Source: an uncultured Gammaproteobacteria bacterium | GTDB lineage: Bacteria > Patescibacteriota > Microgenomatia > UBA10105 > UBA927 | Reading direction: 5' to 3' | Length of the DNA: 64,000 nucleotides | Assembly (NCBI GenBank): GCA_964449585.1 | Contig: CAYUZE010000004.1 | Span: forward strand, 51,063-115,062 | Part shown: piece by piece, positions 22,898 through 62,248 of the stretch | How the letters are laid out: each line of letters begins with the position of its first letter | Position numbering within the stretch: position 1 is the first letter of the stretch | Notes under the pieces: generated by a model | Told to the model about the DNA's origin: nothing | The model's input: the letters and a program-made list of their open reading frames with translations, nothing else | Databases searched by the model: none | Translations under genes and position numbers: made by a program

Positions 22898-23028
22898 CTC
22901 CTTTCCGCCTATTAAAAGGTCTTAGCACTCTTATAACACGAGTGCCAATTTTCTGTCAAGATCTTTTTTCGCCGGTTCGGAAGTTTGTGTCTTGCGTTAC
23001 AAAAACAGTTTCCTTACAATGCCTGTAT

Positions 23029-26198: not shown

Positions 26199-26705
26199 TC
26201 AAGTCCGGGATGCCAACGATGACACTTTATAGGAAAATCCGTGAGTCACCGCGATAGCAAGCGCGTCGCAGGTGTCGTCGGGCGTCGGCATTTTGGTAAG
26301 TCGCAACAGCTTTGTCACCATTTTTCCCACCTGCGATTTGTCCGCGCTTCCGCTGCCGCAGATGGTTTTTTTGACGGTCATAGGTCCGTAGCTCGCAAGC
26401 GGAATATTTGCCTGGGCGCAGGCAAGTAATATGACGCCGCGGGCTTGTCCCACCGCAATAGCCGTCTTTGCATTTTTGGAAAAAAACAAATCCTCGACAC
26501 CGACCGCATCGGGTGCATAGGTCGTCAGCAGTTTCGTAAATGACGTATATATTGCGGCAAGTCTTATTTCCGGCGCATCTTCCTTGGGGGTGGTGATGCA
26601 TCCGTACGCCTTGGCTTGTATGCGGCTCTTATCTTCCGTAATAACTCCCCATCCTATACGCGCCGTTCCGGGATCCACCCCTAGTATCGTTATCATGTGT
26701 TCCAT
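26199..26705 (-). CDS. ruvC: Crossover junction endodeoxyribonuclease RuvC
   Basis: ILGVDPGTARIGWGVI, with acidic catalytic residues conserved. Confidence 0.9.
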   Translation of the reverse strand: MEHMITILGVDPGTARIGWGVITEDKSRIQAKAYGCITTPKEDAPEIRLAAIYTSFTKLLTTYAPDAVGVEDLFFSKNAKTAIAVGQARGVILLACAQANIPLASYGPMTVKKTICGSGSADKSQVGKMVTKLLRLTKMPTPDDTCDALAIAVTHGFSYKVSSLASRT

Positions 26706-26783
26706 TTATATCATGCGAGATTGGGTAATGCCATTGTCGGCTGCGGCGTATTCATATGCTATAGTGCAAGAAGTGAGGGAATA

Positions 26784-45472: not shown

Positions 45473-45498
45473 GATACCGGTGCGCTCGCGGTCCACTT

Positions 45499-46611
45499 AT
45501 GAAAGCGGTTATTATTCTGCCAACGTATAACGAGCGGGAAAATATCACCAGCATGTTAACGAAGCTGGTGGATGTGATGGAGAAAGTAAAGCGCTTTTCG
45601 TATGCGATCCTGGTCGTCGATGACACTTCCCCCGACGGTACCGCCGAACTTGTTCGGGCCTTTGCCAAAACCCACCGTGAAGTTCATCTTTTGACCGGAA
45701 AGAAAGAAGGACTCGGAAAAGCGTTGCTTCGCGGGATGAGTTATGCGATCGACACGCTGCATGCCGAAGTCATTGCCCAGCTTGATGCCGATTTGTCGCA
45801 TGATCCGGAAGCCCTCCCCGAATTTTTCAAAAAAATTGCGGCGGGAGATGATTTTGTCGTAGGCACCCGATATATTCCCGGCGGTTCCATACCTGAGAAT
45901 TGGGGACTCCACCGAAAAATTTTTAGCGTGGTGGGAAATGCCATTGTCCGTTTCGGACTCGGATTCCCGTACGTCCATGACTGGACCGGAGGGTACCGGG
46001 TATTTCGTAAAGAATACTTCGAACGGGCAAAGGATAAAATGGCAAAATACAGCGGGTATGTGTATCAGATCGCGTTTCTTCATAGTGCCATCGTGGATGG
46101 GGCAAAAGTTGGTGAAGTGCCGATCCATTTTACGGACCGGAGATACGGGCGGTCAAAAATTGCGCCCCTTCAATATATACGGAATGTATTTTTGTACGTC
46201 GGACGCGCCCGCTTTCATCAGTTGCGTCACGGTCCGTTTGCCAAGTTTGCGGTAGTGGGAACGGTGGGATTTGTCATTAACACGACGATCCTCGAGCTGG
46301 CGGTGCGAGGAGGGTTTCATCCGGCTGTGGGAAGCGCAATAGGAGCGGAGTGTGCGATTATTTCGAACTTTTTCTTCAATAACGGCTGGACGTTTCGCGG
46401 GAAGAAAATCAGCGGGTTAAGGCTTATTCCTAAATTTCTGCAGTTTAATGCGACGTCATTGGGCGCGCTCCTTATCCAGTCGGGTACCGTCGCGTTGGGA
46501 ACGCATTTCTTCGGTGAAAATCTCTACCGTCTGTTCTATCTCATGGGGGTGGGCATCGGACTTGTCTGGAATTACACCATGTACTCACGGGTAATTTGGA
46601 AGAATAAATAA
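45499..46611 (+). CDS. Polyprenyl-phosphate glycosyltransferase (GT2, Dpm1/GtrB-like) fused to a C-terminal GtrA-like 4-TM domain
   Basis: ILPTYNE, VDD.S.DGT and DAD motifs in the GT2 domain. The C-terminus FAKFAVVGTVGFVINTTIL...NFFFNNGWTF is GtrA-family. Confidence 0.8.
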   Translation: MKAVIILPTYNERENITSMLTKLVDVMEKVKRFSYAILVVDDTSPDGTAELVRAFAKTHREVHLLTGKKEGLGKALLRGMSYAIDTLHAEVIAQLDADLSHDPEALPEFFKKIAAGDDFVVGTRYIPGGSIPENWGLHRKIFSVVGNAIVRFGLGFPYVHDWTGGYRVFRKEYFERAKDKMAKYSGYVYQIAFLHSAIVDGAKVGEVPIHFTDRRYGRSKIAPLQYIRNVFLYVGRARFHQLRHGPFAKFAVVGTVGFVINTTILELAVRGGFHPAVGSAIGAECAIISNFFFNNGWTFRGKKISGLRLIPKFLQFNATSLGALLIQSGTVALGTHFFGENLYRLFYLMGVGIGLVWNYTMYSRVIWKNK

Positions 46612-46613: not shown

Positions 46614-48182
46614 ATGACAACCTTTATGCGTAGGGTAGCCCGATATCTCCCGACAATTATTCTCGTTGGTGTTTTACTTCTCGGCGCGTATCTTCGCCTT
46701 TACAAAATTTCCGAATACATGACGTTCCTCGGGGATGAGGGGCGGGATATGCTGGTGATAAAACGGATGATCGTTGATCACAAATTTACGCTCCTGGGGC
46801 CTACGGCATCGGTGGGAGGATTCTTTTTGGGACCCATCTACTATTACTTCATGTTGCCGTTTGTATGGATAAGCGGATTAAATCCCGCGGGAGCGGCGGT
46901 GATGGTTGCCCTGTTCGGCGTTGCCACCATTTATGCACTCTATCGGCTGGGGAAGGATGCGGTACATGAGTGGGTAGGTCTTTGTGCCGCCGCGCTCTAT
47001 AGCGTTTCACCGCTTGTTATCGCGTACTCACGATCATCATGGAATCCGAATCTTGTCCCGTTTTTTTCGGTAGTGCTCTTGTATGCGCTTTGGCGATCCG
47101 TCATCAAAAACGAATCGAAATGGCTGTTTTGGGTGGGGGTAACGTTAGGCATCGGATTGCAACTGCACTATCTTTTTCTCTTTTTGTTTCCCGTGGTTGG
47201 CGCCTGGTATCTGCTTTTGGGAAGAAAAAAAGAGTGGCTGCTTGCGTACGGGAAGGGGATAGCGGGGTTTGTCGTTGGCTACGGACCGTTTCTTGCTTTT
47301 GAACTGCGTCACGGATTCCCCAATACGATTTCGATTTATAATTTTCTCCGTGAAGGCGAAGGCACGGGATTCATTGCCGCAAATTTTTGGAATACGCTCG
47401 TTGATGTCATCTACCGATTGTTCGGAAGGCTTGTGTTTCGCTTGCCGCCGCCCGAACAATGGGTGAATCTTACCCCGACGGTGCAGACGGTATGGTCGGG
47501 AGCGGTGATAGCCTCCATCATTCTTTCCCTCTGTCTTCTTGTCGGGGTGGGATTGGGGTTATTCGAGAGAAAAAAGAAAACATTGTCTCAAGATCGCCGG
47601 ACGGCGTTGCTGTTTTCCTTGTGGTTAGGAATTCCGCTTATTCTTTTCGGGTTTTATAAAAAGGGCATTTATGATTATTATTTCGGAGTATTTTTTGCCG
47701 TACCGTTTTTGCTTGTCTCGTGGGTGTTATTTTCCATCAAAAAAATACCGATCGTACGATTCATCGTTCCCGTTATCGCGGCAATCCTTCTTATTTTGAA
47801 CTGGGAAGGACGGCCGTTTAAGTTTGCTCCCAACAATCAGCTTGCCCAGGCGCGGGAGATTGCCCGGGTTGCGTACGAGAAAACCGAAGGAAAACCCTAC
47901 AATTTTGCCCTGATAACAAACTCGAATTCCGACCATGCATATCGTTATTTCTTTGAAATATGGGGAAACCCTCCCGTTGCCATCCAAAACGAAACAATCG
48001 ATCCTGAACGGAAGAGTGTTACGGATCAGCTCATCATCATCTGTGAGCTTTCCGAGTGTAAACCCCTGGGTCATCCGTTATGGGAAATCGCCGGTTTCGG
48101 ACGTGCGGAAATAGCGGGTGAGTGGCAGGCATCTTTTGTCCGGGTCATGAAATTAGTACACTATACGGAAGGAGCGAAATGA
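46614..48182 (+). CDS. GT-C membrane glycosyltransferase, ArnT/PMT (GT39/GT83)-like
   Basis: Polytopic, with an early extracytoplasmic loop carrying the FLGDEGRDM DE motif; about 12 TM helices. Confidence 0.7.
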   Translation: MTTFMRRVARYLPTIILVGVLLLGAYLRLYKISEYMTFLGDEGRDMLVIKRMIVDHKFTLLGPTASVGGFFLGPIYYYFMLPFVWISGLNPAGAAVMVALFGVATIYALYRLGKDAVHEWVGLCAAALYSVSPLVIAYSRSSWNPNLVPFFSVVLLYALWRSVIKNESKWLFWVGVTLGIGLQLHYLFLFLFPVVGAWYLLLGRKKEWLLAYGKGIAGFVVGYGPFLAFELRHGFPNTISIYNFLREGEGTGFIAANFWNTLVDVIYRLFGRLVFRLPPPEQWVNLTPTVQTVWSGAVIASIILSLCLLVGVGLGLFERKKKTLSQDRRTALLFSLWLGIPLILFGFYKKGIYDYYFGVFFAVPFLLVSWVLFSIKKIPIVRFIVPVIAAILLILNWEGRPFKFAPNNQLAQAREIARVAYEKTEGKPYNFALITNSNSDHAYRYFFEIWGNPPVAIQNETIDPERKSVTDQLIIICELSECKPLGHPLWEIAGFGRAEIAGEWQASFVRVMKLVHYTEGAK

Positions 48183-48931
48183 CAAGCCCGTTTCTTTCGG
48201 TCGTTATTCCCTCGTATAACGAGGAAACCAATATCCGTTTAGGCAGTCTTGATAAGGTCTCACGGTACCTGGAAAAACAACCCTATACCTGGGAAGCTAT
48301 TCTTGTGGATGACGGATCTACGGATAAGTCGCCACTCCTTATGGATGCCTTTGCCAAGGCGAATCCGGGATTTACCGTGTTGCACAACCCGCATCGGGGG
48401 AAAGCGGAAACAGTCGTTGCGGGCGTAATGCATGCCAAAGGATCGATCGTGCTTTTTTCCGATCTTGACCAGGCCACCCCTATTGCCGAGCTCGAAAAAG
48501 TGCTTCCGTGGTTCGATAAGGGCTACGACGTCGTCATCGGGAGCCGTAACCGAAGACGGGAAGGGGCGCCGCTCTCGCGGGTTATCATGGCACGGGGATT
48601 TATGGTGCTACGGGGGATCATACTGGGACTCAAAGGAATAACTGATACCCAATGCGGCTTTAAGGCGTTTAAACGTCATGTCGCCAAAGATATTTTTTCT
48701 CGGTTACAGTTGTACGGAAAAAATCAGGAAGTGCAGGGTCCCATGGTGACGGCGGGATTTGATATCGAAGCGTTATTCCTCGCCAAAAAGCTCGGTTTCA
48801 AAATTAAGGAAGTTCCCGTGGAATGGCACTACGTCGAAACAAGACGGGTAAATCCGGTCAAAGATTCCCTGCAGGGATTTTTTGACATGATTAAGATCCG
48901 AAGGAACGCCTGGCAGGGCAAATACGCATGA
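48179..48931 (+). CDS. GT2 glycosyltransferase (polyprenyl-phosphate sugar transferase-like)
   Basis: LSVVIPSYNE, LVDDGSTD and SDLD motifs; ATGA overlap with the upstream gene. Confidence 0.8.
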   Translation: MTSPFLSVVIPSYNEETNIRLGSLDKVSRYLEKQPYTWEAILVDDGSTDKSPLLMDAFAKANPGFTVLHNPHRGKAETVVAGVMHAKGSIVLFSDLDQATPIAELEKVLPWFDKGYDVVIGSRNRRREGAPLSRVIMARGFMVLRGIILGLKGITDTQCGFKAFKRHVAKDIFSRLQLYGKNQEVQGPMVTAGFDIEALFLAKKLGFKIKEVPVEWHYVETRRVNPVKDSLQGFFDMIKIRRNAWQGKYA

Positions 48932-50070
48932 AACGCGTCCGGTTTCTTGTATCGCTTTTTTATCTTGCGTGTATCGCGTTATTTTTGTTTTCCTATACGC
49001 AGGTTGATTTGAATCTTACGCTGTCCCGGACCGGCGTTGTCCAGCATATCCAAAAATCGTTTCAATACATAGGATATTATCAGCGGCCGCTTGCTACCGC
49101 GATATACGGAAGTATCCTTTCGCTTTTTTTTGTTTTATACGGATACCTTTCATGGCTTGCGTACAAAAAGCAACTCACGCTCTCCGTGATTCGACGGCTT
49201 ATCGCGGGGGCGACATTGCTGCTTTTGTTCTCCTATCCCGCCGCATTTTCCTACGATTTTTTCAATTATCTCTTTACGGCAAAAACCGTTCTGGTTTATC
49301 ACCATAATCCTTACACCGTGATTCCGTTGCAGTTTGCCGGCATCGATCCATGGACGAATTTTATGCGATGGACGCACTTATCGAGCGCCTACACGCCGCT
49401 GTGGATAGCAATGAGTATGGTTCCGTATATCTTGGGGCTCGGGTATTTTATTCCGGTACTTTTCGCCACTAAATTTTTTATCGCCGCCTGTTATCTTGCG
49501 TCCTGTTATGCGATTGTCCGTATTGCGGAGGCTATAGATCCTGACAAAAAGCCGTTTATCCTGACCGTGTTTGCCTTAAATCCGTTACTCATCGTCGAAA
49601 CGCTGGTGAGCGGACACAATGACATCGTGCTTGTCCTGTTTGCTCTTTTTTCAATTCTTATGTACATAAAAAAGCGGTATGATGCAGCATGGCTTTTGCT
49701 CGGTTTGTCCGTGGCGACGAAATTGATGACGATATTTCTTGTTCCCGTATATCTGTTACGGAAGAACCGATGGTATCTGTTTGTTTTCATGGCTGCGGGA
49801 CTTATCCTGGTGCTGCTCAAACGGGAATTTTTGCCGTGGTACTGGGTATGGATGCTCCCGGTTGTTGCGTTAAACTATGAGCGCGTACGGCTCCTCCGCT
49901 TTTCTTTTGTCGTTTCCGCGGCGCTCCTCTTAAGTTATGCACCGTATCTTTACTATGGCGAATATTCAGCACTATCCCAGGCGTGGAAAACGGGAATCAT
50001 CTGGACAGGAGTGGCGCTGGGTGCCGTGACCGCAATCTTTTTCCCGAAACCGACCGCTACGAACGGATAA
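48928..50070 (+). CDS. Integral membrane protein, DUF2029/GT87-like putative glycosyltransferase
   Basis: Polytopic; the NPLLIVETLVSGHNDIVLV block resembles GT87/DUF2029 mannosyltransferase-like proteins. Confidence 0.5.
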   Translation: MKRVRFLVSLFYLACIALFLFSYTQVDLNLTLSRTGVVQHIQKSFQYIGYYQRPLATAIYGSILSLFFVLYGYLSWLAYKKQLTLSVIRRLIAGATLLLLFSYPAAFSYDFFNYLFTAKTVLVYHHNPYTVIPLQFAGIDPWTNFMRWTHLSSAYTPLWIAMSMVPYILGLGYFIPVLFATKFFIAACYLASCYAIVRIAEAIDPDKKPFILTVFALNPLLIVETLVSGHNDIVLVLFALFSILMYIKKRYDAAWLLLGLSVATKLMTIFLVPVYLLRKNRWYLFVFMAAGLILVLLKREFLPWYWVWMLPVVALNYERVRLLRFSFVVSAALLLSYAPYLYYGEYSALSQAWKTGIIWTGVALGAVTAIFFPKPTATNG

Positions 50071-50439: not shown

Positions 50440-51972
50440 ATGCGGGGGAACAAAACGAAGCTATGGTTCGGTATCGGCGCCTTGGTTCTTGTGGCGCTCT
50501 ATTTTTTCACCCGGCTTTTTCACCTCACGGGGCTTCCCATATTTACCGATGAGGCGATTTACATCCGCTGGTCCCAAATAGGCATGCGGGATGCCAATTG
50601 GCGCTTTATATCGCTCACCGACGGGAAGCAACCCATGTTCACCTGGATCATGATGGTGCTGTTAAAGATTTTTGAGACTGCCGATCCCCTGTGGGCGGGG
50701 AGGCTCACCTCGGTAATTGCGGGATTCGGCACGCTGATCGGTGTCTGGTTTGTGGCATATGAATTGTTTCGCGATCGCCGGGTTTCGTGGGCGGCAAGTG
50801 TAGGCTATATTCTTTTGCCGTTCAGCACCTGGTACGACCGGGTCGCACTGTATGATTCGTTGGTTGCGACATTTGCCGTCTGGAGTTTGTACCTGGGGAT
50901 CCGTTTGGTGCGTAAGTTGCGGCTTGATACCGCACTGTTACTCGGTATGGTGCTGGGTACCGGGATGCTTAATAAAAGTTCCGGATTTTTGTCGCTCTAC
51001 TTTCTGCCCGCAACCCTTCTTTTATTTGATTGGCAACACAAGGAAAAGCGGCAAAAACTTTTACGGTGGATCGCGCTGGTTGCCGTAGCGGGTGTCCTTT
51101 CCCAGGTGATCTACAGCGTGTTACGGCTTTCACCGTTTTTTCACATGGTGGAGCAAAAAGATAACGTGTTTATTTTTTCCGTCAGCGAATGGTTGAATCA
51201 ACCGTTCCGATTCCTTGCGGGTAACCTTCGGGGGATGTTTGACTGGGTACGGCATTATCTCACCTTACCGGTATTTATCGCGGTCTTATTGCCGATCTTT
51301 ACAAGGTGGCCGAAAAACAGGGAGCGATGGTTCCTGTATGTCTGGTGGGCGCTTCCGTTTGCGGCACTTGCGACATTTGCAAAAATACTGTACCCGCGTT
51401 TTATCTTTTTTATGATGATGCCGCTGCTTATCGTTGCGGCTTCAACGGCGGTTACGGTATGGGACGCGATGAAAAATCGGATGGCACGCCTGCTCCTTGT
51501 TTTCGTGCTCGTCGTTCCTTCACTCTTTATGGATTGGTTTATTATTACCAATCCCGTTGCCGCCCCCATACCCGAATCCGAACGCGGGCAATTTTTGGAT
51601 GATTGGCCGGCAGGGTACGGAGTAAAGGAAGTGGTTACCTATCTTACCGCCGAGGCGGCGCATCAAAAAATACAGGTATTTACGGAAGGAACATTCGGAC
51701 TGCTTCCGTACGCGATCGAAATTTATCTTGTCGATAATCCGAACGTACGTATCACCGGTATGTGGCCGCTTCCAGAAACCATGCCTGATGCTATCGTTAC
51801 CGCGGCAAGCGAAAGCGCCACCTACTTTGTCTTGAACGAAACACAGACAAAACCGGATTGGCCGATGACGCTTATCGGCGAGTATCGAAAAGGGATGAGA
51901 GAAGACAAGCGGATGATGCGGTTCTATAGAGTGGATGCTCCGGTTGCCGATTTCGGTGCCGCAAAAAAGTAA
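50440..51972 (+). CDS. GT-C membrane glycosyltransferase, ArnT/PMT (GT39)-like
   Basis: FTDEAIY DE motif in the first loop; about 11 TM helices; GGATATAAT -10 upstream. Confidence 0.7.
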   Translation: MRGNKTKLWFGIGALVLVALYFFTRLFHLTGLPIFTDEAIYIRWSQIGMRDANWRFISLTDGKQPMFTWIMMVLLKIFETADPLWAGRLTSVIAGFGTLIGVWFVAYELFRDRRVSWAASVGYILLPFSTWYDRVALYDSLVATFAVWSLYLGIRLVRKLRLDTALLLGMVLGTGMLNKSSGFLSLYFLPATLLLFDWQHKEKRQKLLRWIALVAVAGVLSQVIYSVLRLSPFFHMVEQKDNVFIFSVSEWLNQPFRFLAGNLRGMFDWVRHYLTLPVFIAVLLPIFTRWPKNRERWFLYVWWALPFAALATFAKILYPRFIFFMMMPLLIVAASTAVTVWDAMKNRMARLLLVFVLVVPSLFMDWFIITNPVAAPIPESERGQFLDDWPAGYGVKEVVTYLTAEAAHQKIQVFTEGTFGLLPYAIEIYLVDNPNVRITGMWPLPETMPDAIVTAASESATYFVLNETQTKPDWPMTLIGEYRKGMREDKRMMRFYRVDAPVADFGAAKK

Positions 51973-51990: not shown

Positions 51991-53583
51991 ATGAGAAAGA
52001 AAAAACCATCAATGCAAAAAAACTCCGGCCACTCACTTGCCCCGAACCGTGATAGGGAGAGTCCTTCGGGATTTTTCTCCCGTTGGTCGTTGCTCCTTAT
52101 TGCGGCGGCACTTTTTCTTGTTCTGACACCCCTGATGCGATCGGGATTTTTTATTACGGACGACGGTGAGTGGATGATAATCCGGCTGTCGGCATTCTAT
52201 CAAAGTCTCGCCGACGGACAATTCCCGGTGCGATTTTTGGGAAGATTGAACAACAGTTACGGCTATCCGGTGAGTAACTTTCTGTATCCGGGGTTTCTCT
52301 ACTTGGGATCCCTGCTGCATATTCTCGGCGCGTCATTTCAGGATGCGGTAAAAATCATCCTTGCCGGTTCCGTTGTCTCGGCCGTTATTGCCGTCTACGC
52401 GGGACTTCGGAAAAGATACGGAAGATGGGCACGGACCATGGGGGCAGTAAGTCTTGTCTTTGCTCCGTATCTCCTTTTTGATATGTATCATCGTGGGTCG
52501 GTGGGAGAAGTACTGGCGATCGCCGCCGCATCCTGGGCCGTCACCGCCATTGTCAGAGGGTGGGGGTGGTTGTTTGCCCCCATGATAGGGCTTCTTATCA
52601 TAAGCCATAATTCGGCGGCGCTCCTTTTGGGGATTGCAATCGCCACCCTTGCGATGAGCGTTCCGGCAAGAGGCATGTTTTTGACCGCCGGCGCAATCGG
52701 CGTGGGGTTTGCCAGTTTTTTCTGGATTCCCGCCCTTCTGGAGAAACATTTGGTTCGGTTTGATGCCGTCGTCATTTCGGATCCGTCATCGTACTTTATT
52801 ACGCCGCTGAATGCCGGACTTATCGGGTTGGGCACCGTGGTTGCGCTTGCGGTATTTCTGGGCTTACGGAAAAAAATTACCCGGTTTGAATCGGTTGCAT
52901 TTTTTTGGGCGATAGCGGGAATCATACTTGCGCTTCCGATTACTGCTCCCGTATGGAACATATCCGCATTTTCCGTCCTTTTTCAGTTTCCGTACCGCGC
53001 GTTGTTATTGCCCGTACTGTTCGGGCCGTGGATTATCGCCGCGGTTTTTGAACATCTTTCGGGTTGGCGGCGGGTCGCCTTATCCGCGGTACTTTTTTCA
53101 GTTTGGTTATCAACGGCATCCGTTCTATTGGGTGAGGTTTCTCCCGTACGGCGTGACACGGGCTATTACGTGACAAACGAAGCGACGACTACCGTCGCAA
53201 ACGAGTATATGCCCCGATGGGTGCATGATATCCCCGTGAATCGTCCCGTGGAAACCTTGGAAGTGATAAACGGCGACGCTCTCCTTTCAACGCGCACGTT
53301 TTCCGGCGAAAAAATCACCTTTACCGCGGAAGCAAAAGAGTCAAGCACGATTCAGATCAATAAAATTTATTATCCCGGATGGGGGATTACCGTTGACAAC
53401 CGATTGACGCCTATTGATTATGCGAACCGATTGGGAGTCATGCGTATCGAAATTCCCAAAGGAACCCATGTCGTATCCGCCGATTTTCGTGAGACACCGT
53501 TTCGATTGGCCGCGGATTTGATAAGTATCCTGTCGTTTATCTGTTATTGCATTGTGTTGCGGCGCCTAACGCACTCATCATGA
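51991..53583 (+). CDS. Large polytopic membrane protein, paralog 1 (putative GT-C-like; possibly PTPS-related/DUF family)
   Basis: Conserved block FFITDDGEWMIIRLSAFYQSLADGQFPVRFLGRLNNSYGYPVSNFLYP is shared with the next gene; about 12 TM helices plus a C-terminal extracytoplasmic domain. Confidence 0.55.
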   Translation: MRKKKPSMQKNSGHSLAPNRDRESPSGFFSRWSLLLIAAALFLVLTPLMRSGFFITDDGEWMIIRLSAFYQSLADGQFPVRFLGRLNNSYGYPVSNFLYPGFLYLGSLLHILGASFQDAVKIILAGSVVSAVIAVYAGLRKRYGRWARTMGAVSLVFAPYLLFDMYHRGSVGEVLAIAAASWAVTAIVRGWGWLFAPMIGLLIISHNSAALLLGIAIATLAMSVPARGMFLTAGAIGVGFASFFWIPALLEKHLVRFDAVVISDPSSYFITPLNAGLIGLGTVVALAVFLGLRKKITRFESVAFFWAIAGIILALPITAPVWNISAFSVLFQFPYRALLLPVLFGPWIIAAVFEHLSGWRRVALSAVLFSVWLSTASVLLGEVSPVRRDTGYYVTNEATTTVANEYMPRWVHDIPVNRPVETLEVINGDALLSTRTFSGEKITFTAEAKESSTIQINKIYYPGWGITVDNRLTPIDYANRLGVMRIEIPKGTHVVSADFRETPFRLAADLISILSFICYCIVLRRLTHSS

Positions 53584-55229
53584 AACGAGTCCTACCGTAT
53601 ATTTTGCTTGCGCTTGCGGGTTTTTTTGCCGTCCGGCCGCTCGTATCTCCGGGGTTCTTCCCGATGCACGATGATACGCAGGTTGCCCGTGTCATCGAAA
53701 TGGGAAGGGCGCTTCGTGATTTCCAGTTTCCCGTCCGATGGGTCAATGAGTTAGGGTACGGATACGGTTATCCGATTTTTAATTTTTACGGACCGTTACC
53801 GTATTATTTCGGCGGGTTGCTGTATGCCGTGGGTGTCCCCGCCGTTTTGGCAACCAAAATCATGTTTGCCGCAGGGATCCTACTGCCCGCATTGTTGGTA
53901 ACGCTGCTTATCGAACTGCCGTACGGACTTCTTGCCGGCGTACTCTTTCTTTTTGCGCCCTATCATGCGGTACAGATATACGTTCGGGGGGCGGTGGGTG
54001 AATATTGGTCCCTCGTGTTTTTCCCCCTTATTGCCTACTGGATTACGGGATGGGGAAAACCCGCAACAAAGAAGTCGGCGGCGGCGGGAGCGATCGGTAT
54101 CGGAGGAGTGATCCTCTCCCATACTCTGATGGGATTTGCGGTGACGATCTTCGTCGGGTGTTCCTTTGTCCTGTATCGGATGATTCGATATCTTCGTAAT
54201 CGCGACCGGCTTCGCGAAACGCTTTCCGCATCCTTTCCGCTGCTTCTCGGTATGGGGCTTGCGGGTTTTTTCTGGCTCCCTGCAATGTTTGAAATGCAGT
54301 TTACCGGGGTTTCCGGCCAGGTGAGTGCCAGTGCCGATTATAAGGATCACTTCGTATGTATCACCCAACTGTACGCATCACTCTGGGGATTCGGCGGATC
54401 CGCGAAAGGATGTGTTGACGGCATGTCGTTTATGGTCGGGAAAGCCCATCTGCTTCTCGGTTTTGCCGGACTGGTGACGGCGCTTGTATTGCGGCCGAAA
54501 CGAATGGCCGGACTTATAGGAGTTGCGGTCGCCGCGGCATTTGTAGGAGTATTGTTTGCTACCGAAGCTTCAAAATGGTTGTGGGATAGCATCCCCGGCT
54601 TTGCCTACCTTCAATATCCCTGGCGTTTTCTGGGGATTCTTATGTTCGGCACGTCACTCTTGGGAAGTTTTGCGATGCTCCCGGTAAAAAACGCCGTTGC
54701 CAAATGGGCGGCAACCATAGCCATTTGCGTCGGGGTTATACTGTTAAACGGCAAATGGTTTATGCCCCAATATACCTATGAGAAACCAAGTACCGCATTT
54801 GAAGCCCCTTCCGATGTCAGGTGGCGGGTGTCAAAAATTTCCGATGAATACCTTCCGCGTTCCGTCCCCCGGCCGGACACACCGAAAGAAGCTGATTTTG
54901 CTACAATAGAGGAAGGAAACGGCCTGTCGGCGCGGTTGCTGACAAAAACCACGACCCGGGAAGTATGGTCCGTCATTGCGGCGGAAGAGATGCCCGTTCG
55001 TATCAATAAAGCGCCGTTTCCCGGTTGGCGGTATTTTATTAACGATAAAGAAGTACGGCCGACCGTCAAAAACGGATTGCCCGAGCTTACTCTTGCCGCG
55101 GGTCAGTCGTATATAACCATGCGTTTTACCGATACGCCGATACGGGTTATCGGCAACGGTATTTCGCTTGTTAGCCTTATTATTTTTATTTATTATCTTT
55201 ATGCCAAGCAGCACAAAACCAAGCGTTAA
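53580..55229 (+). CDS. Large polytopic membrane protein, paralog 2 of 51991-53583
   Basis: FFPMHDDTQVARVIEMGRALRDFQFPVRWVNELGYGYGYPIFNFYGP aligns with paralog 1; ATGA overlap with it. Confidence 0.55.
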   Translation: MKRVLPYILLALAGFFAVRPLVSPGFFPMHDDTQVARVIEMGRALRDFQFPVRWVNELGYGYGYPIFNFYGPLPYYFGGLLYAVGVPAVLATKIMFAAGILLPALLVTLLIELPYGLLAGVLFLFAPYHAVQIYVRGAVGEYWSLVFFPLIAYWITGWGKPATKKSAAAGAIGIGGVILSHTLMGFAVTIFVGCSFVLYRMIRYLRNRDRLRETLSASFPLLLGMGLAGFFWLPAMFEMQFTGVSGQVSASADYKDHFVCITQLYASLWGFGGSAKGCVDGMSFMVGKAHLLLGFAGLVTALVLRPKRMAGLIGVAVAAAFVGVLFATEASKWLWDSIPGFAYLQYPWRFLGILMFGTSLLGSFAMLPVKNAVAKWAATIAICVGVILLNGKWFMPQYTYEKPSTAFEAPSDVRWRVSKISDEYLPRSVPRPDTPKEADFATIEEGNGLSARLLTKTTTREVWSVIAAEEMPVRINKAPFPGWRYFINDKEVRPTVKNGLPELTLAAGQSYITMRFTDTPIRVIGNGISLVSLIIFIYYLYAKQHKTKR

Positions 55230-55950
55230 TATCGTGCTTCCCGTGTATAACGAAGCGGTGGAATTGAAAACAAGTGTCGGCACCCTCATCCGGTACCTGG
55301 CAAAAAATCTCTCCGATTTTTCCTGGCATATAACGATCGCCGATAACGCAAGCACCGATGCCACTTTGAAAATCGCGCGTGAACTCAGTCGTACGTATCA
55401 ATCCGTGTCGGTAGAACATCTTTCGCAAAAAGGACGGGGAAGGGCGGTGAAGCACGTCTGGCGCAAAGGCGACTATGATTATCTTGCCTACATGGATATA
55501 GATCTTTCGACCGATCTGAAGCACCTGCCGCCGCTCTTGCATGCGCTCGAGCGGGGTTTTGACATGGCAATAGGGAGCAGAAATACGAAGGGAGCGAGAG
55601 TATTCGGGAGAAGCACGCTGCGGTCAATCACTTCCAAAGGATATATCAGCCTTATCAAGCTTTTTTTCTGGGTGAATTTCACCGATGCGCAATGCGGATT
55701 TAAGGCGGTCTCCCGAAGGGTCGTACGCGAGCTCATGCCGCAGGTGAAAGATAACGAATGGTTTTTTGACAGTGAACTCCTGATCGTCGGTGAGAAGAGC
55801 GGGTATCGGATTTACGAAGAACCGGTGACGTGGATCGATAATCCCGGGTCTACGGTGCGTGTCATGAAAACGGCGCTTGGGGACTTGAAAGGATTGTGGC
55901 GGTTATATACCACGCGGCCGTGGAGAAAGCTACCGTATGCCAGACATTGA
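55201..55950 (+). CDS. GT2 glycosyltransferase
   Basis: IVLPVYNE, IADNASTD and MDIDLSTD motifs. Confidence 0.8.
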   Translation: MPSSTKPSVNIVLPVYNEAVELKTSVGTLIRYLAKNLSDFSWHITIADNASTDATLKIARELSRTYQSVSVEHLSQKGRGRAVKHVWRKGDYDYLAYMDIDLSTDLKHLPPLLHALERGFDMAIGSRNTKGARVFGRSTLRSITSKGYISLIKLFFWVNFTDAQCGFKAVSRRVVRELMPQVKDNEWFFDSELLIVGEKSGYRIYEEPVTWIDNPGSTVRVMKTALGDLKGLWRLYTTRPWRKLPYARH

Positions 55951-57388
55951 TTTGGATGTTATAAAGAAACGTTCGGTGGTCGGCGTCGTTGCCCTTACCG
56001 CGCGGACGTTCGTTCTTCAGGTGGTCGCATTTGGTGCGACATTTTTATTGACATTATTTTTAACCCCCGATATCTTCGGTGTTTTTTATGTTGTTTCCGC
56101 GATCATTTCCTTCTTGGGATATTTTTCCGATATCGGCTTAGCCGCGGCACTGGTGCAAAAGAAAGACGAGGTGACCGACGAAGATTTAAATACGACATTC
56201 ATGATCCAACAGGGGTTAGTCGTTACCCTTGTCGTTATTAGTCTTATTTTTTCCCAATTTATCGCGTCGTTTTACCGGCTTGATGCTTCGGGCGTGTGGC
56301 TATTTCGTGCGCTTGCGGTATCGTTTTTTCTTTCGAGCCTTAAGACGATTCCGTCGGTGTTACTGGAGCGAAAATTATCCTTTGACCGCCTGGTGATTCC
56401 GCATATCGTCGAAACGCTGGGTTTTTACGGCGTCGCCGTATTTTTTGCCTGGCGCGGACAGGGGATAACAAGTTTCACCTGGGCGGTATTGGTGCGGGGT
56501 ATTTTGGGACTTATCACCATGTATATCGTCGAACCGTGGTTTCCCCGGTTTGCCGTATCCCGCGTCAGCGCCAAACGCCTTATGAAGTTCGGTATCCCGT
56601 TTCAGATGAATTCATTTTTGGCGCTGTTAAAAGACGATCTTATGACGGTATTTTTGGGGCGGGTGTTACCGTTTGCGGAAGTGGGATATATCGGATGGGC
56701 CAAGAAGTGGGCGGAAGTACCGTTACGGCTTATCATGGATAGCGTCATCCGCGTGACGTTCCCCGCATATTCACGGTTGCAGCACGACAAAAAACTTCTG
56801 GAAAAGGCGATCGATAAAACGATGTTCGGCCTTGCGTCGGCGATTCTACCGCTTTCGACCGGATTGTTGTTTTTTGTGCATCCCATGGTTGGCTTAATTC
56901 CGCGATATGCCAAATGGGAGCCGGCCATCATTTCGTTTTATATTTTCGTCTTTTCGTCGGCAATCGCCGCGCTTTCAACGCCGCTTATGAACGCGTTAAA
57001 TGCCGTAGGCAAAATTCGAACGACCTTATCATTCATGGTGGGGTGGACGATCGGTACCTGGGCGTGCACCCTCCTGTTTATGCAATTTTTCGGGTTTAAC
57101 GGCGTGGCGCTCGCCCTTCTTTTCGTATCATTGTCAATTGTACTTGTGATAAAAACGGCGAAACGAATTGCCGATTTTTCGTTTATCGACAACGTAAAGG
57201 GGCCGATTGTGGCGACCGTTGTGCAGGGGTGCGCCTATTGGCTCCTCCTGGCCGTAACACCCCACACGTATATAAGCCTTGTGGTTCTGGGAATTATCGG
57301 TATGGGGGTGTATGCCGGTGCACTGTTTGTTCTGGAAAAAAATAACATATATGCATTTATCGGTATGATAAGGAGGAGTACCCAATGA
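55937..57388 (+). CDS. Wzx-like oligosaccharide flippase (MOP/polysaccharide biosynthesis protein family)
   Basis: 14-TM pattern and an N-terminal block typical of PF01943/PF13440 flippases. Confidence 0.75.
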   Translation: MPDIDLDVIKKRSVVGVVALTARTFVLQVVAFGATFLLTLFLTPDIFGVFYVVSAIISFLGYFSDIGLAAALVQKKDEVTDEDLNTTFMIQQGLVVTLVVISLIFSQFIASFYRLDASGVWLFRALAVSFFLSSLKTIPSVLLERKLSFDRLVIPHIVETLGFYGVAVFFAWRGQGITSFTWAVLVRGILGLITMYIVEPWFPRFAVSRVSAKRLMKFGIPFQMNSFLALLKDDLMTVFLGRVLPFAEVGYIGWAKKWAEVPLRLIMDSVIRVTFPAYSRLQHDKKLLEKAIDKTMFGLASAILPLSTGLLFFVHPMVGLIPRYAKWEPAIISFYIFVFSSAIAALSTPLMNALNAVGKIRTTLSFMVGWTIGTWACTLLFMQFFGFNGVALALLFVSLSIVLVIKTAKRIADFSFIDNVKGPIVATVVQGCAYWLLLAVTPHTYISLVVLGIIGMGVYAGALFVLEKNNIYAFIGMIRRSTQ

Positions 57389-58286: not shown

Positions 58287-59207
58287 ATGAAAAAAGTCGC
58301 CATCGTTATCGTGAACTGGAACGGTTATAAAGACACATCGGTGTGTCTTCGGTCGCTTGCCAAGCTCCGGCGTACCAACGTCGAAGTAGAAACAATTGTC
58401 GTGGATAACGGTTCGACCGATGAATCGGCTGCGATAATCGCCAGGGATTTTCCCGGGGCGGTGCTTTTAAAACTCGACGAGAATCGGGGTTTTACCGGCG
58501 GCAATAACATAGGTATTACGTATGCGATGAAACGGGGAGCGGATTTTGTATGGCTGCTTAATAATGATACGATCGTCGATCCCGAAGCACTTTCGCTTCT
58601 TGACGCTTTTGATACCGATACCGTGGGAATTGCCGGATCAAAAATTTATTTTGCGCCGGGACACGAATATCATAAAACCCGCTACGCCAAAAACGAACGC
58701 GGGCGGGTATTTTGGTACGCAGGCGGACTGGTTGATTGGGATAACCTTTATGCTTCGCATCGCGGCGTTGATGAGGTGGATCATGGGCAATACGATCGTG
58801 CAATAGAAACGCCGTTTGTGACCGGTTGTTCCATGATGATCGCAAGAGCAGTCGTGGAATCCGTGGGGCTTTTGGATGATGCCTATTATCTGTATCTGGA
58901 GGATCTTGATTATTGTCTCCGCGCAAAGCGCGCGGGATTCACGCTTGTCTACCAGCCGACATCGGTTATCTGGCACGTCAACGCCGGCTCGTCGGGTGGT
59001 GCGGGGAATCCCCTCCATGATTATTACATCACTCGTAACCGGTTGCTTCTCGGCATGCGGTATGCCTCAATCCGAACCAAAATTGCCCTGCTTCGTGAAG
59101 GCGTCGCGTTTCTTCACGAGAACAACGAGGAAAAACGAAAAGCGGTTGCTGACTTTTTCTTTCTCAGACGGGGGAAACAATATGAACCGAAAAAAGCAAA
59201 AACTTAG
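58287..59207 (+). CDS. GT2 glycosyltransferase (rhamnosyltransferase-like)
   Basis: VAIVIVNWNG, VVDNGSTDES and LLNNDT motifs. Confidence 0.8.
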   Translation: MKKVAIVIVNWNGYKDTSVCLRSLAKLRRTNVEVETIVVDNGSTDESAAIIARDFPGAVLLKLDENRGFTGGNNIGITYAMKRGADFVWLLNNDTIVDPEALSLLDAFDTDTVGIAGSKIYFAPGHEYHKTRYAKNERGRVFWYAGGLVDWDNLYASHRGVDEVDHGQYDRAIETPFVTGCSMMIARAVVESVGLLDDAYYLYLEDLDYCLRAKRAGFTLVYQPTSVIWHVNAGSSGGAGNPLHDYYITRNRLLLGMRYASIRTKIALLREGVAFLHENNEEKRKAVADFFFLRRGKQYEPKKAKT

Positions 59208-59949
59208 CATTGTTATCATTGCCAGAAACGAAGCGCCGCGTATCGCCGCATGTATCGGTGCGCTTGAAGATGTCGGCGAAATTATCGTTGTCGATAACGG
59301 CTCCCAGGATGATACGACTCGTGTTGCCAAACAGGCGGGAGCGCAAGTTATCCCGGTTACGCAGGAAGGGTTTGCAACCCTCCGCAATCATGCCATGCGA
59401 TATGTGACGGGCGAGTGGGTGTTGTATGTCGATGCCGACGAGATTGTAACCCCGACGCTTCGGAAAGCCATAGCGGATGGCATTGCTCCCCACGCCAAAA
59501 ATGCGGTAGCAGGGTACGAACTCTATCGAAAAAACTACTACCTCGGTCATCCGTGGCCGGGAGGGGAATGGATGCTCCGGCTTTTCCGTGTTGCGGCGTT
59601 TCGCGGTTGGGAGGGCGAACTGCACGAAACGGCACGGGTAGAGGGGGAAGTAAAACGCTTGGAAGGAGAACTGCTGCATGATACGCACCGGACGCTTGAA
59701 GAAATGGTCGATAAAACAAACGAGTGGAGCGAAACGGAGGCAATGTTGCGACTTGTCGCCCATCATCCGCCGATGACCTGGTGGAGAATGCTTCGGGTAA
59801 CGCTCACCGGTTTTTTGCATTCGTACATAACCCTCGGCGGATGGCGTGCCGGTACGGTGGGCTGGATCGAAAGCATATACCAGGGGTTTAGCTTATTTAT
59901 TACGTACGCGAAACTATGGGAGTTGCAGCAAAAAAAGTCACATGAATAA
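59182..59949 (+). CDS. GT2 glycosyltransferase
   Basis: LSIVIIARNE, VVDNGSQDDT and YVDADE motifs; start at the ATG at 59182. Confidence 0.75.
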   Translation: MNRKKQKLSIVIIARNEAPRIAACIGALEDVGEIIVVDNGSQDDTTRVAKQAGAQVIPVTQEGFATLRNHAMRYVTGEWVLYVDADEIVTPTLRKAIADGIAPHAKNAVAGYELYRKNYYLGHPWPGGEWMLRLFRVAAFRGWEGELHETARVEGEVKRLEGELLHDTHRTLEEMVDKTNEWSETEAMLRLVAHHPPMTWWRMLRVTLTGFLHSYITLGGWRAGTVGWIESIYQGFSLFITYAKLWELQQKKSHE

Positions 59950-62248
59950 ATTAGCAGTACGATTCTGGCCGATCGGCGTGATTATTTTTCTTACCTGTCT
60001 TTTAGGGGCTCCGCTTACTCGCGGAAATATGCCGTTTCCGGGGACGTATCTTGCCACATTTTTCACCCCCTGGGCAGCAACGTACGCCATGCCCGTCAAA
60101 AATAATGCGATGCCGGACGTGATAACCCAAATCTTCCCATGGAAACGGGTAACCGTGGATTCCTGGAAACAGGGGCAATTGCCACTATGGAATCCGTATA
60201 GTTTTTCGGGAACCAGCCATATCGGTACGTATCAGACGGCAATATTTTCCCCGTTTACTCTTTTGTTTTTACTGCCCGAAAAGATTGCATGGAGTGTCCT
60301 TATCCTTCTGCAACCGCTTCTTGCGGGGATCGGCATGTATTGCTTCCTTTCTCGACGAAGCCTCACCCCGGAAGCCCGGCTCATCGGAAGTATCGCCTTC
60401 ATGTTTTGCGGGTTTATGACCGTCTGGATGGCATACGGAACGCTCGGATACGCCGTGCTTTTTCTTCCGTACGCACTTTTGGGCATAGATATTCTTATCA
60501 TTGACGGTAAGCGCCACGGGGGACTTATTACGGCGGCAGCCCTTGCGCTTTCATTTCTTTCCGGACATTTTCAGATGAGCCTTTACGTTTTGCTGTATGT
60601 CGCCGGGTATCTGGTGTTTCTTTCGTTTGAAAAAAATAATCGAAAACGGTTACCGGTTGCCGTCATCGCACTGTTATTCGGCATACTTCTTGCGGCTCCC
60701 CAAATACTTGCCGGTTTTATGGCATACACGGAGGCGGTGCGCAGTAGTCTGTTTATAAAAGGGGAAGTAATTCCTTGGCGATATTTCCCCACGATACTGG
60801 CTCCTGATTTTTACGGTAATCCCGTAACGAGAAACGATTGGTTCGGGCACTATGCGGAGTGGGCGAGCTATATCGGCGTTGCTCCGCTGTTTTTTGCAAT
60901 CGCAGCGGTCATTGCGCGCCGCACCTATCGTCCTCTCCGCTTTTTTGCGGGCATGGGAATCCTGTCGTTGCTTTTTGCGTATCAAACGCCGCTTGTGGAT
61001 CTGTTGTTTTTCCTTAAAATTCCGGTCTTGTCGACGAGTTCGGCATCACGAATCATCATTCTTGCAAGCTTTTCTCTTGCCGTGCTTTCCGCATACGGTC
61101 TGGATGCCGTACGGGAGCTTTGGGCAAAACGGAACAAAGGAGCAATCATACGAGGGGCTCTCGGAGTGGGCGGACTTTTTATCGTGCTTTGGGGGGTGTT
61201 GCTTGTGGGGCGACCGTTCCCGGCCGATAAACTGGCTATTGCCACACGCAATCTGGTGCTTCCCACGGCACTTGCCTTGCTATGGGTGACGGGATTTGCA
61301 TCCGGTTTAGTGCTTCCCAAAAACATTGGTAGGATACTTCCCTTTCTTTTTGTGATCATAACGGGAATTGATATGTACCGTTATACCGCAAAATGGATGC
61401 CGTTTGATCCGCACACGCTGGTCTACCCCGAGGTTCCCGCGATCACCGCGCTGCAGCGGCTTACGCGACAGGATAATTCGCGTGCCTTCGGCAACATCGG
61501 CAATGAAGTCGGTTCCGCGTTCGGCATTCCGCTTATCGAAGGATACGACGCCGTGTATAGTCATCGGTATGGAAAGCTTATGGGATCGGTAAGCGAAGGA
61601 AAATTTCGTCCGGTGGACCGGTCGGTCGTGGTGTTTGATAAACATGGGAAATACAGTCAGGAAATGTTAAATCTCCTCGGTGTACGGTACTATTTTCATA
61701 AAAAAAGCGACGGAAGACTCCCCTGGGCATATCCCTTTTGGGATCATCCCGGGTATGTACGTGTTTGGGAAGATGATCATTTTGAAATTCTTGAAAATAC
61801 CCAACATTATCCGCGGGTGTTTTTGGCAAACTCGTTTGTCGTCGCAAACGGTGAGCAATCAATCCTCGATACGCTGTATCGGGAAGGCATGGATCGACGA
61901 AACACGTTAGTACTCGAAACCGCCCCTCATATCACTCCGGAAGCGGGGACGGGGAGTGCAACGATACTTTCCTATACGCCGAACGAGGTGGTTATCGGCG
62001 TGGACACTTCAGCACCTACGCTACTTTTTCTTTCCGACACCTACGATACCGGTTGGAAGGCAACGATTGACGGGACCAAAACACCGCTGTATCGGGCTCA
62101 CTATGATTTCCGGGCGGTTGCGGTGCCCGCAGGGCTGCATACCGTGCGTATGCGATACCTGCCGTGGTACGTCGTATGGGGATGTGTGTTAAGCGGATTT
62201 GCTACACTGGGATTGCTCGTCATTTTTTTGAAAAAGAGGAAAACATGA
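59942..62248 (+). CDS. YfhO-family GT-C membrane protein
   Basis: QGQLPLWNPYSFSGTS motif and polytopic N-terminal half with a large C-terminal extracytoplasmic domain and final TM, as in Bacillus YfhO. Confidence 0.7.
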   Translation: MNKLAVRFWPIGVIIFLTCLLGAPLTRGNMPFPGTYLATFFTPWAATYAMPVKNNAMPDVITQIFPWKRVTVDSWKQGQLPLWNPYSFSGTSHIGTYQTAIFSPFTLLFLLPEKIAWSVLILLQPLLAGIGMYCFLSRRSLTPEARLIGSIAFMFCGFMTVWMAYGTLGYAVLFLPYALLGIDILIIDGKRHGGLITAAALALSFLSGHFQMSLYVLLYVAGYLVFLSFEKNNRKRLPVAVIALLFGILLAAPQILAGFMAYTEAVRSSLFIKGEVIPWRYFPTILAPDFYGNPVTRNDWFGHYAEWASYIGVAPLFFAIAAVIARRTYRPLRFFAGMGILSLLFAYQTPLVDLLFFLKIPVLSTSSASRIIILASFSLAVLSAYGLDAVRELWAKRNKGAIIRGALGVGGLFIVLWGVLLVGRPFPADKLAIATRNLVLPTALALLWVTGFASGLVLPKNIGRILPFLFVIITGIDMYRYTAKWMPFDPHTLVYPEVPAITALQRLTRQDNSRAFGNIGNEVGSAFGIPLIEGYDAVYSHRYGKLMGSVSEGKFRPVDRSVVVFDKHGKYSQEMLNLLGVRYYFHKKSDGRLPWAYPFWDHPGYVRVWEDDHFEILENTQHYPRVFLANSFVVANGEQSILDTLYREGMDRRNTLVLETAPHITPEAGTGSATILSYTPNEVVIGVDTSAPTLLFLSDTYDTGWKATIDGTKTPLYRAHYDFRAVAVPAGLHTVRMRYLPWYVVWGCVLSGFATLGLLVIFLKKRKT

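Follow-up and report, generated by a model that had tools for sequence, protein, structure and literature searches.

The window analyzed here, meaning the whole stretch of 64,000 nucleotides, carries two adjacent genes on its + strand that we call ORF-A and ORF-B. ORF-A occupies positions 51991..53583 and encodes 530 amino acids (aa); its NCBI entry, MFZ5535505.1, is labeled "hypothetical protein" and starts at Met8, giving 523 aa. ORF-B follows at 53580..55229 with 549 aa and is recorded as MFZ5535504.1, a "6-pyruvoyl-tetrahydropterin synthase-related protein." Both are predicted to be polytopic membrane proteins with a GT-C fold. The stop codon of ORF-A and the start codon of ORF-B overlap in an ATGA that can be read directly in the sequence (53580..53583, + strand), which suggests translational coupling. 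The original prediction had located both genes and their overlap correctly, and its length of ~530 aa for ORF-A stands. The ~560 aa that it gave for ORF-B does not; this length is reached only from an upstream TTG, a start that we rejected because the homologues and the NCBI gene call fit the ATG at 53580.

The two proteins are tandem paralogues, as had been proposed. BLASTP aligns them along their whole length at 26% identity (E=4e-31), far beyond chance, and hhalign of the ORF-A family against the ORF-B family spans 495 columns with E=3.6e-58. The accompanying guess of a PTPS-related family was right for ORF-B, which matches PF10131 (PTPS_related) at 28.0 bits (E=1e-06; gathering threshold 26.4 bits), with residues 67-407 aligned to profile positions 1-318, the transmembrane (TM) core. 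ORF-A itself gives no PF10131 match at E<=1, and 5 of 65 members of its family do; we place it with the PF10131 proteins because of its homology to ORF-B. Precomputed PF10131 matches exist for most ORF-B homologues and for some ORF-A homologues. Against YfhO (PF09586), ORF-A scores 17.1 bits, at its C-terminus only and short of the gathering threshold of 28.5 bits, and 16 of its 65 family members match (best E=2.8e-07). ORF-B has no YfhO match in Pfam, and hhalign of its family with the window's YfhO protein aligns the C-terminal module only (probability 59%).

ORF-A lies below every curated family threshold in Pfam and NCBIfam. Neither protein falls into an NCBIfam family, and at E<=1 Pfam gives no PMT, PMT_2, or MIR match for either. 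Sequence searches of all PDB chains with ORF-A, ORF-B, and an ORF-B-family profile returned nothing meaningful, and the link to solved structures runs through fold comparison only. PF10131 is already listed in the Pfam GT-C clan CL0111 and described as "function unknown" (PMC7801869), and the assignment of a GT-C fold is therefore not new. The novelty lies in this subfamily, and the unnamed ORF-A, being biochemically uncharacterized. We found no characterized PF10131 member, and our literature searches, covering Patescibacteria and Gottesmanbacteria, turned up nothing relevant on the family or the cluster.

The loop block shared by both proteins is worth describing residue by residue. The peptides quoted in the original prediction, GFFITDDGEWMIIRLSAFYQSLADGQFPVRFLGRLNNSYGYPVSNF in ORF-A and GFFPMHDDTQVARVIEMGRALRDFQFPVRWVNELGYGYGYPIFNF in ORF-B, occur verbatim, and they belong to a block in the predicted first extracytoplasmic loop. 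In ORF-A this block covers residues 52-107 (52144..52311, + strand), after TM1 (helix 27-49), and contains D57-D58 (nt 52159-52164), Q77-F-P-V-R81, G91-Y-P-V, and N96-F-L-Y-P-G. Its counterpart in ORF-B, residues 25-79 (53652..53816, + strand) after TM1 (helix 5-22), contains H30-D31-D32 (DD at nt 53670-53675), Q49-F-P-V-R53, G63-Y-P, and N68-F. The two proteins have the DD, QFPVR, and GYP..NF blocks in common, with invariant columns in each. Among 120 homologues of each protein, the DD and QFPVR residues are invariant or nearly so: D57 and D58 of ORF-A are 100% conserved, D31 and D32 of ORF-B 99% and 97%, and in both families Q, P, and R of QFPVR stand at 100% and F and V at 95-100%. D57-D58 is the sole DD/DE/ED/EE pair in ORF-A. 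D31-D32 is the sole such pair in the TM core of ORF-B, whose other acidic pairs (DE422, EE444, and EE469) all fall in the C-terminal beta-sandwich.

The suggested parallel between this DD and the acidic motif of GT-C enzymes also held up. The pair is conserved, immediately follows TM1 on what is predicted to be the outer face, and in ORF-B aligns with the D-E of the conserved T-D-E of a neighboring PMT_2 protein; the proposed catalytic Asp of solved GT-C enzymes likewise sits directly after TM1 (PMC11127046). The alignment in question, hhalign of ORF-B orthologues with the second PMT_2 of the cluster, is long but weak (probability 16%, E=0.0017), so the equivalence of DD and DE rests mainly on position and fold. 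No usable alignment was obtained with orthologues of the cluster's GT87 or first PMT_2 protein. A conserved acidic pair follows TM1 in all four PMT_2, ORF-A, and ORF-B proteins of the cluster.

AlphaFold2 gave confident models of both proteins (pTM 0.88 and 0.90), and a GT-C core was found in each; its absence from a structure prediction was what the original prediction had named as refuting it. Foldseek agrees, with a probability of 1.00, and the structural matches include Pmt1-Pmt2, EmbA-EmbB, Pmt4 homodimer, PIG-U, and GAB1 entries. Each protein has ~12 predicted TM helices by AlphaFold2 secondary structure, with which a hydropathy scan agrees, and GT-C proteins range from 7 to 13. The predicted first extracytoplasmic loop of ORF-A has low pLDDT at residues 82-96. 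Because the N-terminus of ORF-A holds 7 K/R, we place it in the cytoplasm; more generally, the K/R-rich N- and C-termini and predicted inner loops of both proteins lead us, by the positive-inside rule, to infer that all termini are cytoplasmic and the conserved residues outside. The original prediction of a large C-terminal extracytoplasmic domain is correct as to the domain but not as to its size, which in the models is a modest beta-sandwich of ~120 aa between the penultimate and final TM helices. It is predicted at residues ~385-502 of ORF-A (53143..53496, + strand), before a last TM helix at 503-529, and at residues ~397-518 of ORF-B (54768..55133, + strand), before a last TM helix at 520-541; the modeled strands of ORF-B lie at residues 449-516. 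Conserved within it are E405-Y and Y461-P-G-W in ORF-A and E423-Y and F480-P-G-W in ORF-B. In ORF-A the sandwich is probably an acceptor- or carbohydrate-binding module.

The pair sits within a glycan cluster that starts with an RmlA gene at 40497 and runs past position 63297. Its GT-C genes number six, and three of its GT2 genes resemble polyprenyl-phosphate sugar synthases; it also encodes a Wzx flippase, a GtrA domain, a UDP-Glc dehydrogenase, and four more cytoplasmic glycosyltransferases, and it has Rml and nucleotide-sugar genes. Upstream of the pair, all on the + strand, are a GT2-GtrA fusion (45454-46611), the first PMT_2 GT-C (46614-48182), a GT2 (48179-48931), a GT87 GT-C (48928-50070), and the second PMT_2 GT-C (50440-51972). 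Downstream, also on the + strand, a further GT2 that we call GT2c (55168..55950; Pfam Glycos_transf_2) overlaps the end of ORF-B. It is polyprenyl-phosphate sugar synthase-like and is the candidate for making the donor. Its best NCBIfam resemblances, none of which reaches the cut-off, are to Dol-P hexose transferase, PgfS, AglJ, and ArnC. Then come a Wzx/MOP-family flippase (55937..57388, + strand; Polysacc_synt_3 E=1.2e-50) and the sixth GT-C gene, encoding a YfhO-family protein of 800 aa (59846..62248, + strand; PF09586 104.5 bits, cut-off 28.5). Within the window we identified no priming phosphoglycosyltransferase, polymerase, or ligase, and the pathway as read is therefore incomplete. The order of a 13-gene core, from the GT2-GtrA fusion to the YfhO gene, is the same across Gottesmanbacteria and Levybacteria.

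How do these proteins compare with known systems? Like other PF10131 proteins they are polytopic with a predicted GT-C fold, but they reach only about halfway along the 621-position profile and then continue into a short YfhO-like C-terminal module. With the YfhO family (B. subtilis and S. aureus YfhO, Listeria Lmo1079, and streptococcal PgtC2, PgfM1, and PgfM2) they share an architecture in which a GT-C TM core is followed by an extracytoplasmic domain that separates the terminal TM helix from the one before it (PMC5836110), and their C-terminal ~75-150 residues are detectably homologous. They also follow the same genetic logic, in which the gene has a flippase and a polyprenyl-P-sugar-synthase-like GT2 for neighbors (PMC8035078). 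However, they are ~300 aa shorter, with an extracytoplasmic domain of ~120 aa versus 389 aa in B. subtilis YfhO (PMC5836110), and the cluster encodes its true YfhO separately. Relative to Pmt1/2/4 (GT39) and bacterial PMT_2 they lack a MIR domain and share 9-11% sequence identity, a likeness at fold level only. In the EmbA-EmbB, AftA, AftD, and GT136 ORF12 systems several outer-face GT-C enzymes act on one polymer with polyprenyl-monophosphate sugars, and the mycobacterial arabinosyltransferases, like ORF-A and ORF-B, have a C-terminal beta-rich module, which in the former is carbohydrate-binding (PMC11127046). These are different families, though, with no significant sequence match, and ORF-A and ORF-B have an extra TM helix after the beta-sandwich. 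EmbA-EmbB nevertheless offers a precedent for a tandem pair of paralogues. EmbA and EmbB form a heterodimer.

The proposal that the pair are GT-C glycosyltransferases is supported by the confident models, Foldseek, the PF10131 match of ORF-B, and the conserved DD. [quoted passage not shown] The gene context fits GT-A/flippase/GT-C systems of the type described for CsbB-GtcA-YfhO and others (PMC5836110, PMC8035078, PMC11127046). By this mechanism, a cytoplasmic GT2 enzyme would charge polyprenyl phosphate with a sugar drawn from a nucleotide sugar, and GT2c, overlapping the end of ORF-B, is the best candidate for this loading step. The lipid-linked sugar would be flipped to the outer face, perhaps by the adjacent Wzx or the upstream-encoded GtrA domain, where ORF-A and ORF-B would each add it to a glycan or glycoprotein being built at the cell surface. 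The conserved Asp-Asp after TM1 may act as a catalytic base or bind a metal, the lipid phosphate may be gripped by conserved R, K, and H residues on the outer side of the membrane, and the small C-terminal beta-sandwich may help to hold the acceptor. Most likely the two proteins would make two different additions, consecutive or linkage-specific, within an assembly line of several GT-C enzymes that is conserved among Microgenomates. We suggest this division of labor because the catalytic set is common to both but its surroundings differ: the acidic pair is set in T-DD-GEW in ORF-A versus H-DD-TQV in ORF-B, and a Cys-pair loop is peculiar to ORF-B.

Several other readings deserve consideration. 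Rather than acting as independent enzymes, the two proteins could be partners in a single obligate GT-C heteromer of the EmbA-EmbB or Pmt1-Pmt2 type, with an active site in each; we regard this as a tentative possibility. ORF-B follows ORF-A in 77 of 80 loci, even where orthologue identity falls to 37%, and the gap between them is -4 nt in 45 of 78 related loci (median -4; ORF-based estimates using the first in-frame ATG as start). At one locus with the same gene context (P0263 / L081), ORF-A and ORF-B are naturally fused into a single uninterrupted reading frame of 1116 aa, and this fusion would be topologically compatible because the C-terminus of ORF-A and the N-terminus of ORF-B are both predicted to be cytoplasmic. 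Dimers are common among solved GT-C enzymes, as the Pmt1-Pmt2, EmbA-EmbB, and Pmt4 homodimer matches illustrate. However, the overlap is not specific to the pair, since nearly every gene pair in the cluster overlaps by a few bases; by the same kind of estimate, the gap from ORF-B to GT2c is negative in 60 of 62 loci. ORF-A-like modules are elsewhere fused to PMT_2 modules, and multi-module giants are also found, so fusion indicates a common pathway rather than a specific ORF-A:ORF-B interface. Alternatively, one paralogue might be the enzyme and its partner a degenerate, non-catalytic scaffold or acceptor-binding subunit, like PIG-U in the GPI transamidase. Such decay is frequent in duplicated enzymes, and the non-catalytic GT-C-fold subunits PIG-U and GAB1 are among the structural matches. 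We nonetheless find this very improbable, as the whole polar set (D,D; R; Q..R; N; K; R..E; H; E; W; Q..R; E-Y; R) is 97-100% conserved in both families and their mean column identities are comparable at 53% and 54%. Numbered by ORF-A, the invariant residues common to both are D57/D58, R65, Q77, R81, N96, K121, R168, E173, H206, E251, Q332, R336, and E405, each with a counterpart in ORF-B.

The nature of the acceptor and donor raises further alternatives. O-glycosylation of Ser/Thr-rich regions of surface proteins, as by PMTs or the YfhO-type PgtC2, PgfM1, and PgfM2, has a precedent in streptococcal YfhO-family enzymes that glycosylate proteins (10.1101/2024.05.05.592596), and the cluster's own YfhO has a PgfM2-like C-terminus and its GT2 genes are PgfS-like. 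We judge a protein acceptor rather unlikely all the same: ORF-A and ORF-B have neither a MIR domain nor another PMT-specific module; the Rml genes, UDP-Glc dehydrogenase, Wzx, and four additional cytoplasmic glycosyltransferases are typical of lipid-linked glycan building; and an acceptor cannot be read from fold similarity. En bloc transfer of a preassembled glycan from polyprenyl diphosphate, as by STT3, PglB, or AglB, seems improbable given that the WWD, WWDxG, and DxD motifs are absent from both proteins, that the ~120-aa beta-sandwich is not an oligosaccharyltransferase (OST)-type periplasmic domain, and that the three GT2 genes resembling polyprenyl-monophosphate sugar synthases lie in between the GT-C genes. 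As for pterin metabolism, the NCBI and Pfam name is all that speaks for it. No PTPS catalytic domain was detected, what matches is a polytopic membrane domain with a predicted GT-C fold, and the neighboring genes all concern glycan synthesis; we give this reading practically no credence. OST, PMT, and pterin-synthase identities were rejected, their defining motifs or domains being missing.

For annotators, the gain is practical. The "hypothetical" ORF-A can now be described as a predicted GT-C glycosyltransferase, the misleading "pterin synthase-related" label on ORF-B can be corrected, and candidate catalytic residues are defined in both. The enzyme class is well known, and what is added is annotation and a pointer to an unstudied pathway, not a new principle. 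To our knowledge, Patescibacteria have tiny genomes and a cell envelope that is almost wholly unstudied; here at least 23 kb of a ~0.99-Mb contig is given to one glycan cluster. Because the core order is kept across Gottesmanbacteria and Levybacteria, we argue that the cluster makes a core surface structure, which may have a role in host attachment. A bolder reading, which we hold to be on the unlikely side, makes the pair an obligate heteromeric GT-C enzyme with two active sites at the center of a Microgenomates-wide line that builds an undescribed envelope glycopolymer or glycoprotein coat in ultrasmall bacteria. If true, this heteromer-centered line would comprise three lipid-sugar synthases as well as six GT-C enzymes and would be an analogue of mycobacterial arabinan/mannan assembly in a genome of ~1 Mb.

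ORF-A (51991-53583, + strand) encodes a 530-aa polytopic membrane protein and ends in a TGA (53581-53583) that overlaps the ATG (53580) of its downstream neighbor ORF-B (53580-55229, + strand; 549 aa from this ATG), the junction reading ...CATC ATG A AAC.... The original prediction had described this tandem pair and its ATGA overlap correctly, and the peptides it quoted are all found verbatim in the two translations, but its length of about 560 aa for B does not hold: this needs an upstream TTG, and both the homologues and the NCBI gene call give 549 aa. The proteins are, as proposed, paralogues over their full length (BLASTP E=4e-31, 26% identity over ~530 residues; hhalign of the A-family against the B-family alignment, E=3.6e-58 over 495 columns). 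In NCBI, A is a “hypothetical protein” (MFZ5535505.1) and B a “6-pyruvoyl-tetrahydropterin synthase-related protein” (MFZ5535504.1).

The latter name is misleading, since it was carried over from a Pfam label; Pfam finds no pterin-synthase domain in B, and a pterin-related role is excluded on that ground. As a family assignment the earlier guess was sound: B matches PF10131 over its TM core (28.0 bits, gathering score 26.4), a family of GT-C clan CL0111 listed in Pfam as “function unknown” (PMC7801869). The C-terminal 75 residues of A match the extreme end of the YfhO profile below threshold (17.1 vs 28.5 bits), and 16 of 65 A-family members have a YfhO match and five a PF10131 match. Remoter A-like proteins lie above the PF10131 cut-off, with YfhO and PMT_2 cross-matching the same region. 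There is no NCBIfam model for A or B, and PDB sequence searches with either gave nothing meaningful. The wider A-related family is large; an exhaustive search with the A-family profile collected 14,928 cluster representatives at E≤0.001, with 2,735 reaching E≤1e-30.

Structure prediction places both proteins in the GT-C fold that had been suggested for them. AlphaFold2, run on the family alignments, gave models with ~12 TM helices each (A, pLDDT 84.8, pTM 0.88, weak at residues 82-96 in the first loop and at 396-403; B, pLDDT 89.0, pTM 0.90). Against solved GT-C structures the A model scored 21.2 with Pmt4, 18.9 with ALG12, 18.8 with ArnT, 18.5 with AglB, 18.1 with both AftA and STT3B, and 16.5 with AftD, and Foldseek recovered the same set with probability 1.00. 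The N-termini are rich in K/R (7 in 25 residues of A; B begins MKR), as are the predicted inside loops (e.g., B 203-214, with 5) and the C-terminus of B (4 among the last 7 residues); the C-terminal tail of A would be cytoplasmic, judging from the helix count of the model and not from charge. With both termini inside, the predicted topology puts the DD pair, just after TM1, and the QFPVR/GYP loop on the extracytoplasmic side, together with R..GE, H, FFWxPA..E, Q(F/Y)PxR, and a beta-sandwich (A ~385-502, B ~397-518). In solved GT-C enzymes, the proposed catalytic Asp directly follows the first TM helix (PMC11127046). The two PMT_2 proteins of the surrounding cluster likewise carry conserved GDEGRD and TDEA at this position, and hhalign of B orthologues with PMT_2 orthologues sets the H-D-D of B over T-D-E, albeit weakly (E=0.0017, probability 16%, 306 columns).

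Homologues at E≤1e-5 in a large protein collection numbered 911 for A and 1945 for B, nearly all from Patescibacteria or Gottesmanbacteria metagenome bins. Among 120 homologues of each protein, the DD pair is close to invariant (A D57 and D58, 100%; B D31, 99%, and D32, 97%), as are Q, P, and R of QFPVR (100% in both families; F and V, 95-100%) and the G-Y-P and N-F blocks (98-100%). A joint alignment reveals one polar set common to both families, given here as A/B: D57/D31, D58/D32, R65/R37, Q77/Q49, R81/R53, N96/N68, K121/K93, R168..E173/R136..E141, H206/H181, FFWxPA..E251/..E238, W322/W335, Q332..R336/Q345..R349, E405-Y/E423-Y, PGW, and R505/R522. Catalytic roles are presumed for individual conserved residues. 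Beside the DD pair, A reads T-DD-GEW, whereas B reads H-DD-TQV, and a Y393-x-T-N-E397 block is peculiar to the A family. Specific to the B family is a loop (residues 260-278, window 54357-54413; HFVC...WGFGGSA.GC.DG) that has no counterpart in A; it is predicted to be extracytoplasmic with low pLDDT (~46), and its invariant C260 and C278 could possibly form a disulfide.

The pair lies in a glycan cluster that starts at ~40497 and extends past 63297, spanning no less than 23 kb. This begins with RmlA-, RmlB-, and RmlD-like genes, a UDP-glucose dehydrogenase, and an SDR dehydratase/decarboxylase-like gene, continues with a GT2-GtrA fusion, PMT_2, GT2, GT87, PMT_2, A, and B, and then with GT2, a Wzx/MOP flippase, three more GT2, YfhO (800 aa, a true family member at 104.5 bits), and GT4. 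The GT2-GtrA gene (45454-46611), which heads the GT-C run, joins a GT2 domain to a C-terminal GtrA/DPMS TM domain and, from its domains, would place a putative flippase module on the same chain as a synthase. For three of the GT2 proteins the closest resemblance is to polyprenyl-phosphate sugar synthases (ArnC, PgfS, AglJ, Dol-P hexose transferase, PpgS), in every case under the curated cut-off. By gene content the cluster thus encodes six GT-C proteins and the other two parts of the known GT-A/flippase/GT-C scheme for extracytoplasmic glycosylation (PMC5836110, PMC8035078, PMC11127046). The window showed no priming phosphoglycosyltransferase, polymerase, or ligase.

The long ORFs 58876-59949 and 59846-62248 overlap in a mechanical ORF list; the GT2 domain of the former starts at ~59164, and the YfhO ORF, listed from GTG 59846, has its conserved region beginning near an internal Met; the listed starts of both are provisional. 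Genes upstream of 39 kb are housekeeping; an unusually long S26 signal peptidase ORF (26697-28559, 620 aa) and a separate protein with two DsbA/thioredoxin-like stretches (22942-23796) are unrelated to A-B.

When one genome per species was scanned, a close relative of A turned up in 162 genomes. The 80 loci compared come from Gottesmanbacteria, Levybacteria, and unclassified Patescibacteria, as well as from numerous bins with the title “uncultured Gammaproteobacteria” in which the cluster also occurs. In 77 of the 80, A is directly followed by B in the same orientation; the remainder end at or near a contig edge. Most loci, across both Gottesmanbacteria and Levybacteria, keep the 13-gene core in the order GT2-GtrA, PMT_2, GT2, GT87, PMT_2, A, B, GT2, Wzx, GT2, GT2, GT2, YfhO; those of Levybacteria have an additional YfhO and sometimes an additional A- or B-like copy upstream. 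With each start approximated by the first in-frame ATG, the gap from A to B has a median of -4 nt (exactly a 4-nt overlap in 45/78 loci), and B overlaps the next GT2 in 60/62; tight overlaps are cluster-wide, not particular to A-B. As A orthologues range down to 37% identity, against ~26% between A and B, the duplication is older than the split of these lineages.

The “uncultured Gammaproteobacteria” title recurs on records with a Patescibacteria-type cluster (L002, L006, L008, L011, and others). A short contig carries the label Bacteroidia and another contig Limnocylindrales (loci L022 and L070); P0391, which falls in the same 90%-identity cluster as B, is assigned to “Candidatus Brocadia sp. 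AMX3.” Such labels probably reflect placeholder taxonomy or bin contamination, although the Limnocylindrales contig, 280 kb long, might represent a genuine case beyond Patescibacteria.

The evidence fits best with A and B each being an active GT-C glycosyltransferase. The donor, of a class that we infer, would probably be made by the GT2 whose gene overlaps the downstream end of B, and the two would most likely catalyze different steps, a presumptive division of labor. That one paralogue is a pseudo-enzyme is unlikely because both families keep the full polar set, and en bloc transfer of the OST type is unlikely because A and B have neither WWDxG nor DxD. It is plausible that the acceptor is a protein rather than a glycan.

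An obligate A:B heteromer is likewise plausible, and natural fusions bear on it. In P0263 (L081 8001-11351, 1116 aa) an A-like half precedes a B-like half in a single ORF that is unbroken and free of Ns; its contig, of 76 kb, has the context of the A-B cluster (GT87, PMT_2, PMT_2, fusion, Wzx, GT2, YfhO). P0340 joins a pair of B-like modules, P0329 and P0356 each combine an A-like module with PMT_2, and P0346 (3329 aa) has several modules. These fusions show that the modules share a pathway and that their topologies allow them to be joined; they hint at an A:B complex but fall short of proof.

The fold class is already known, as are the family (PF10131, within the GT-C clan) and the three-component logic. 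No prior description of a six-GT-C Microgenomates cluster was found in the searchable literature. What is new is that protein A, so far without annotation, receives a GT-C assignment, that A and B form a conserved pair with overlapping genes and a natural fusion, and that a six-GT-C cluster is conserved in Microgenomates.
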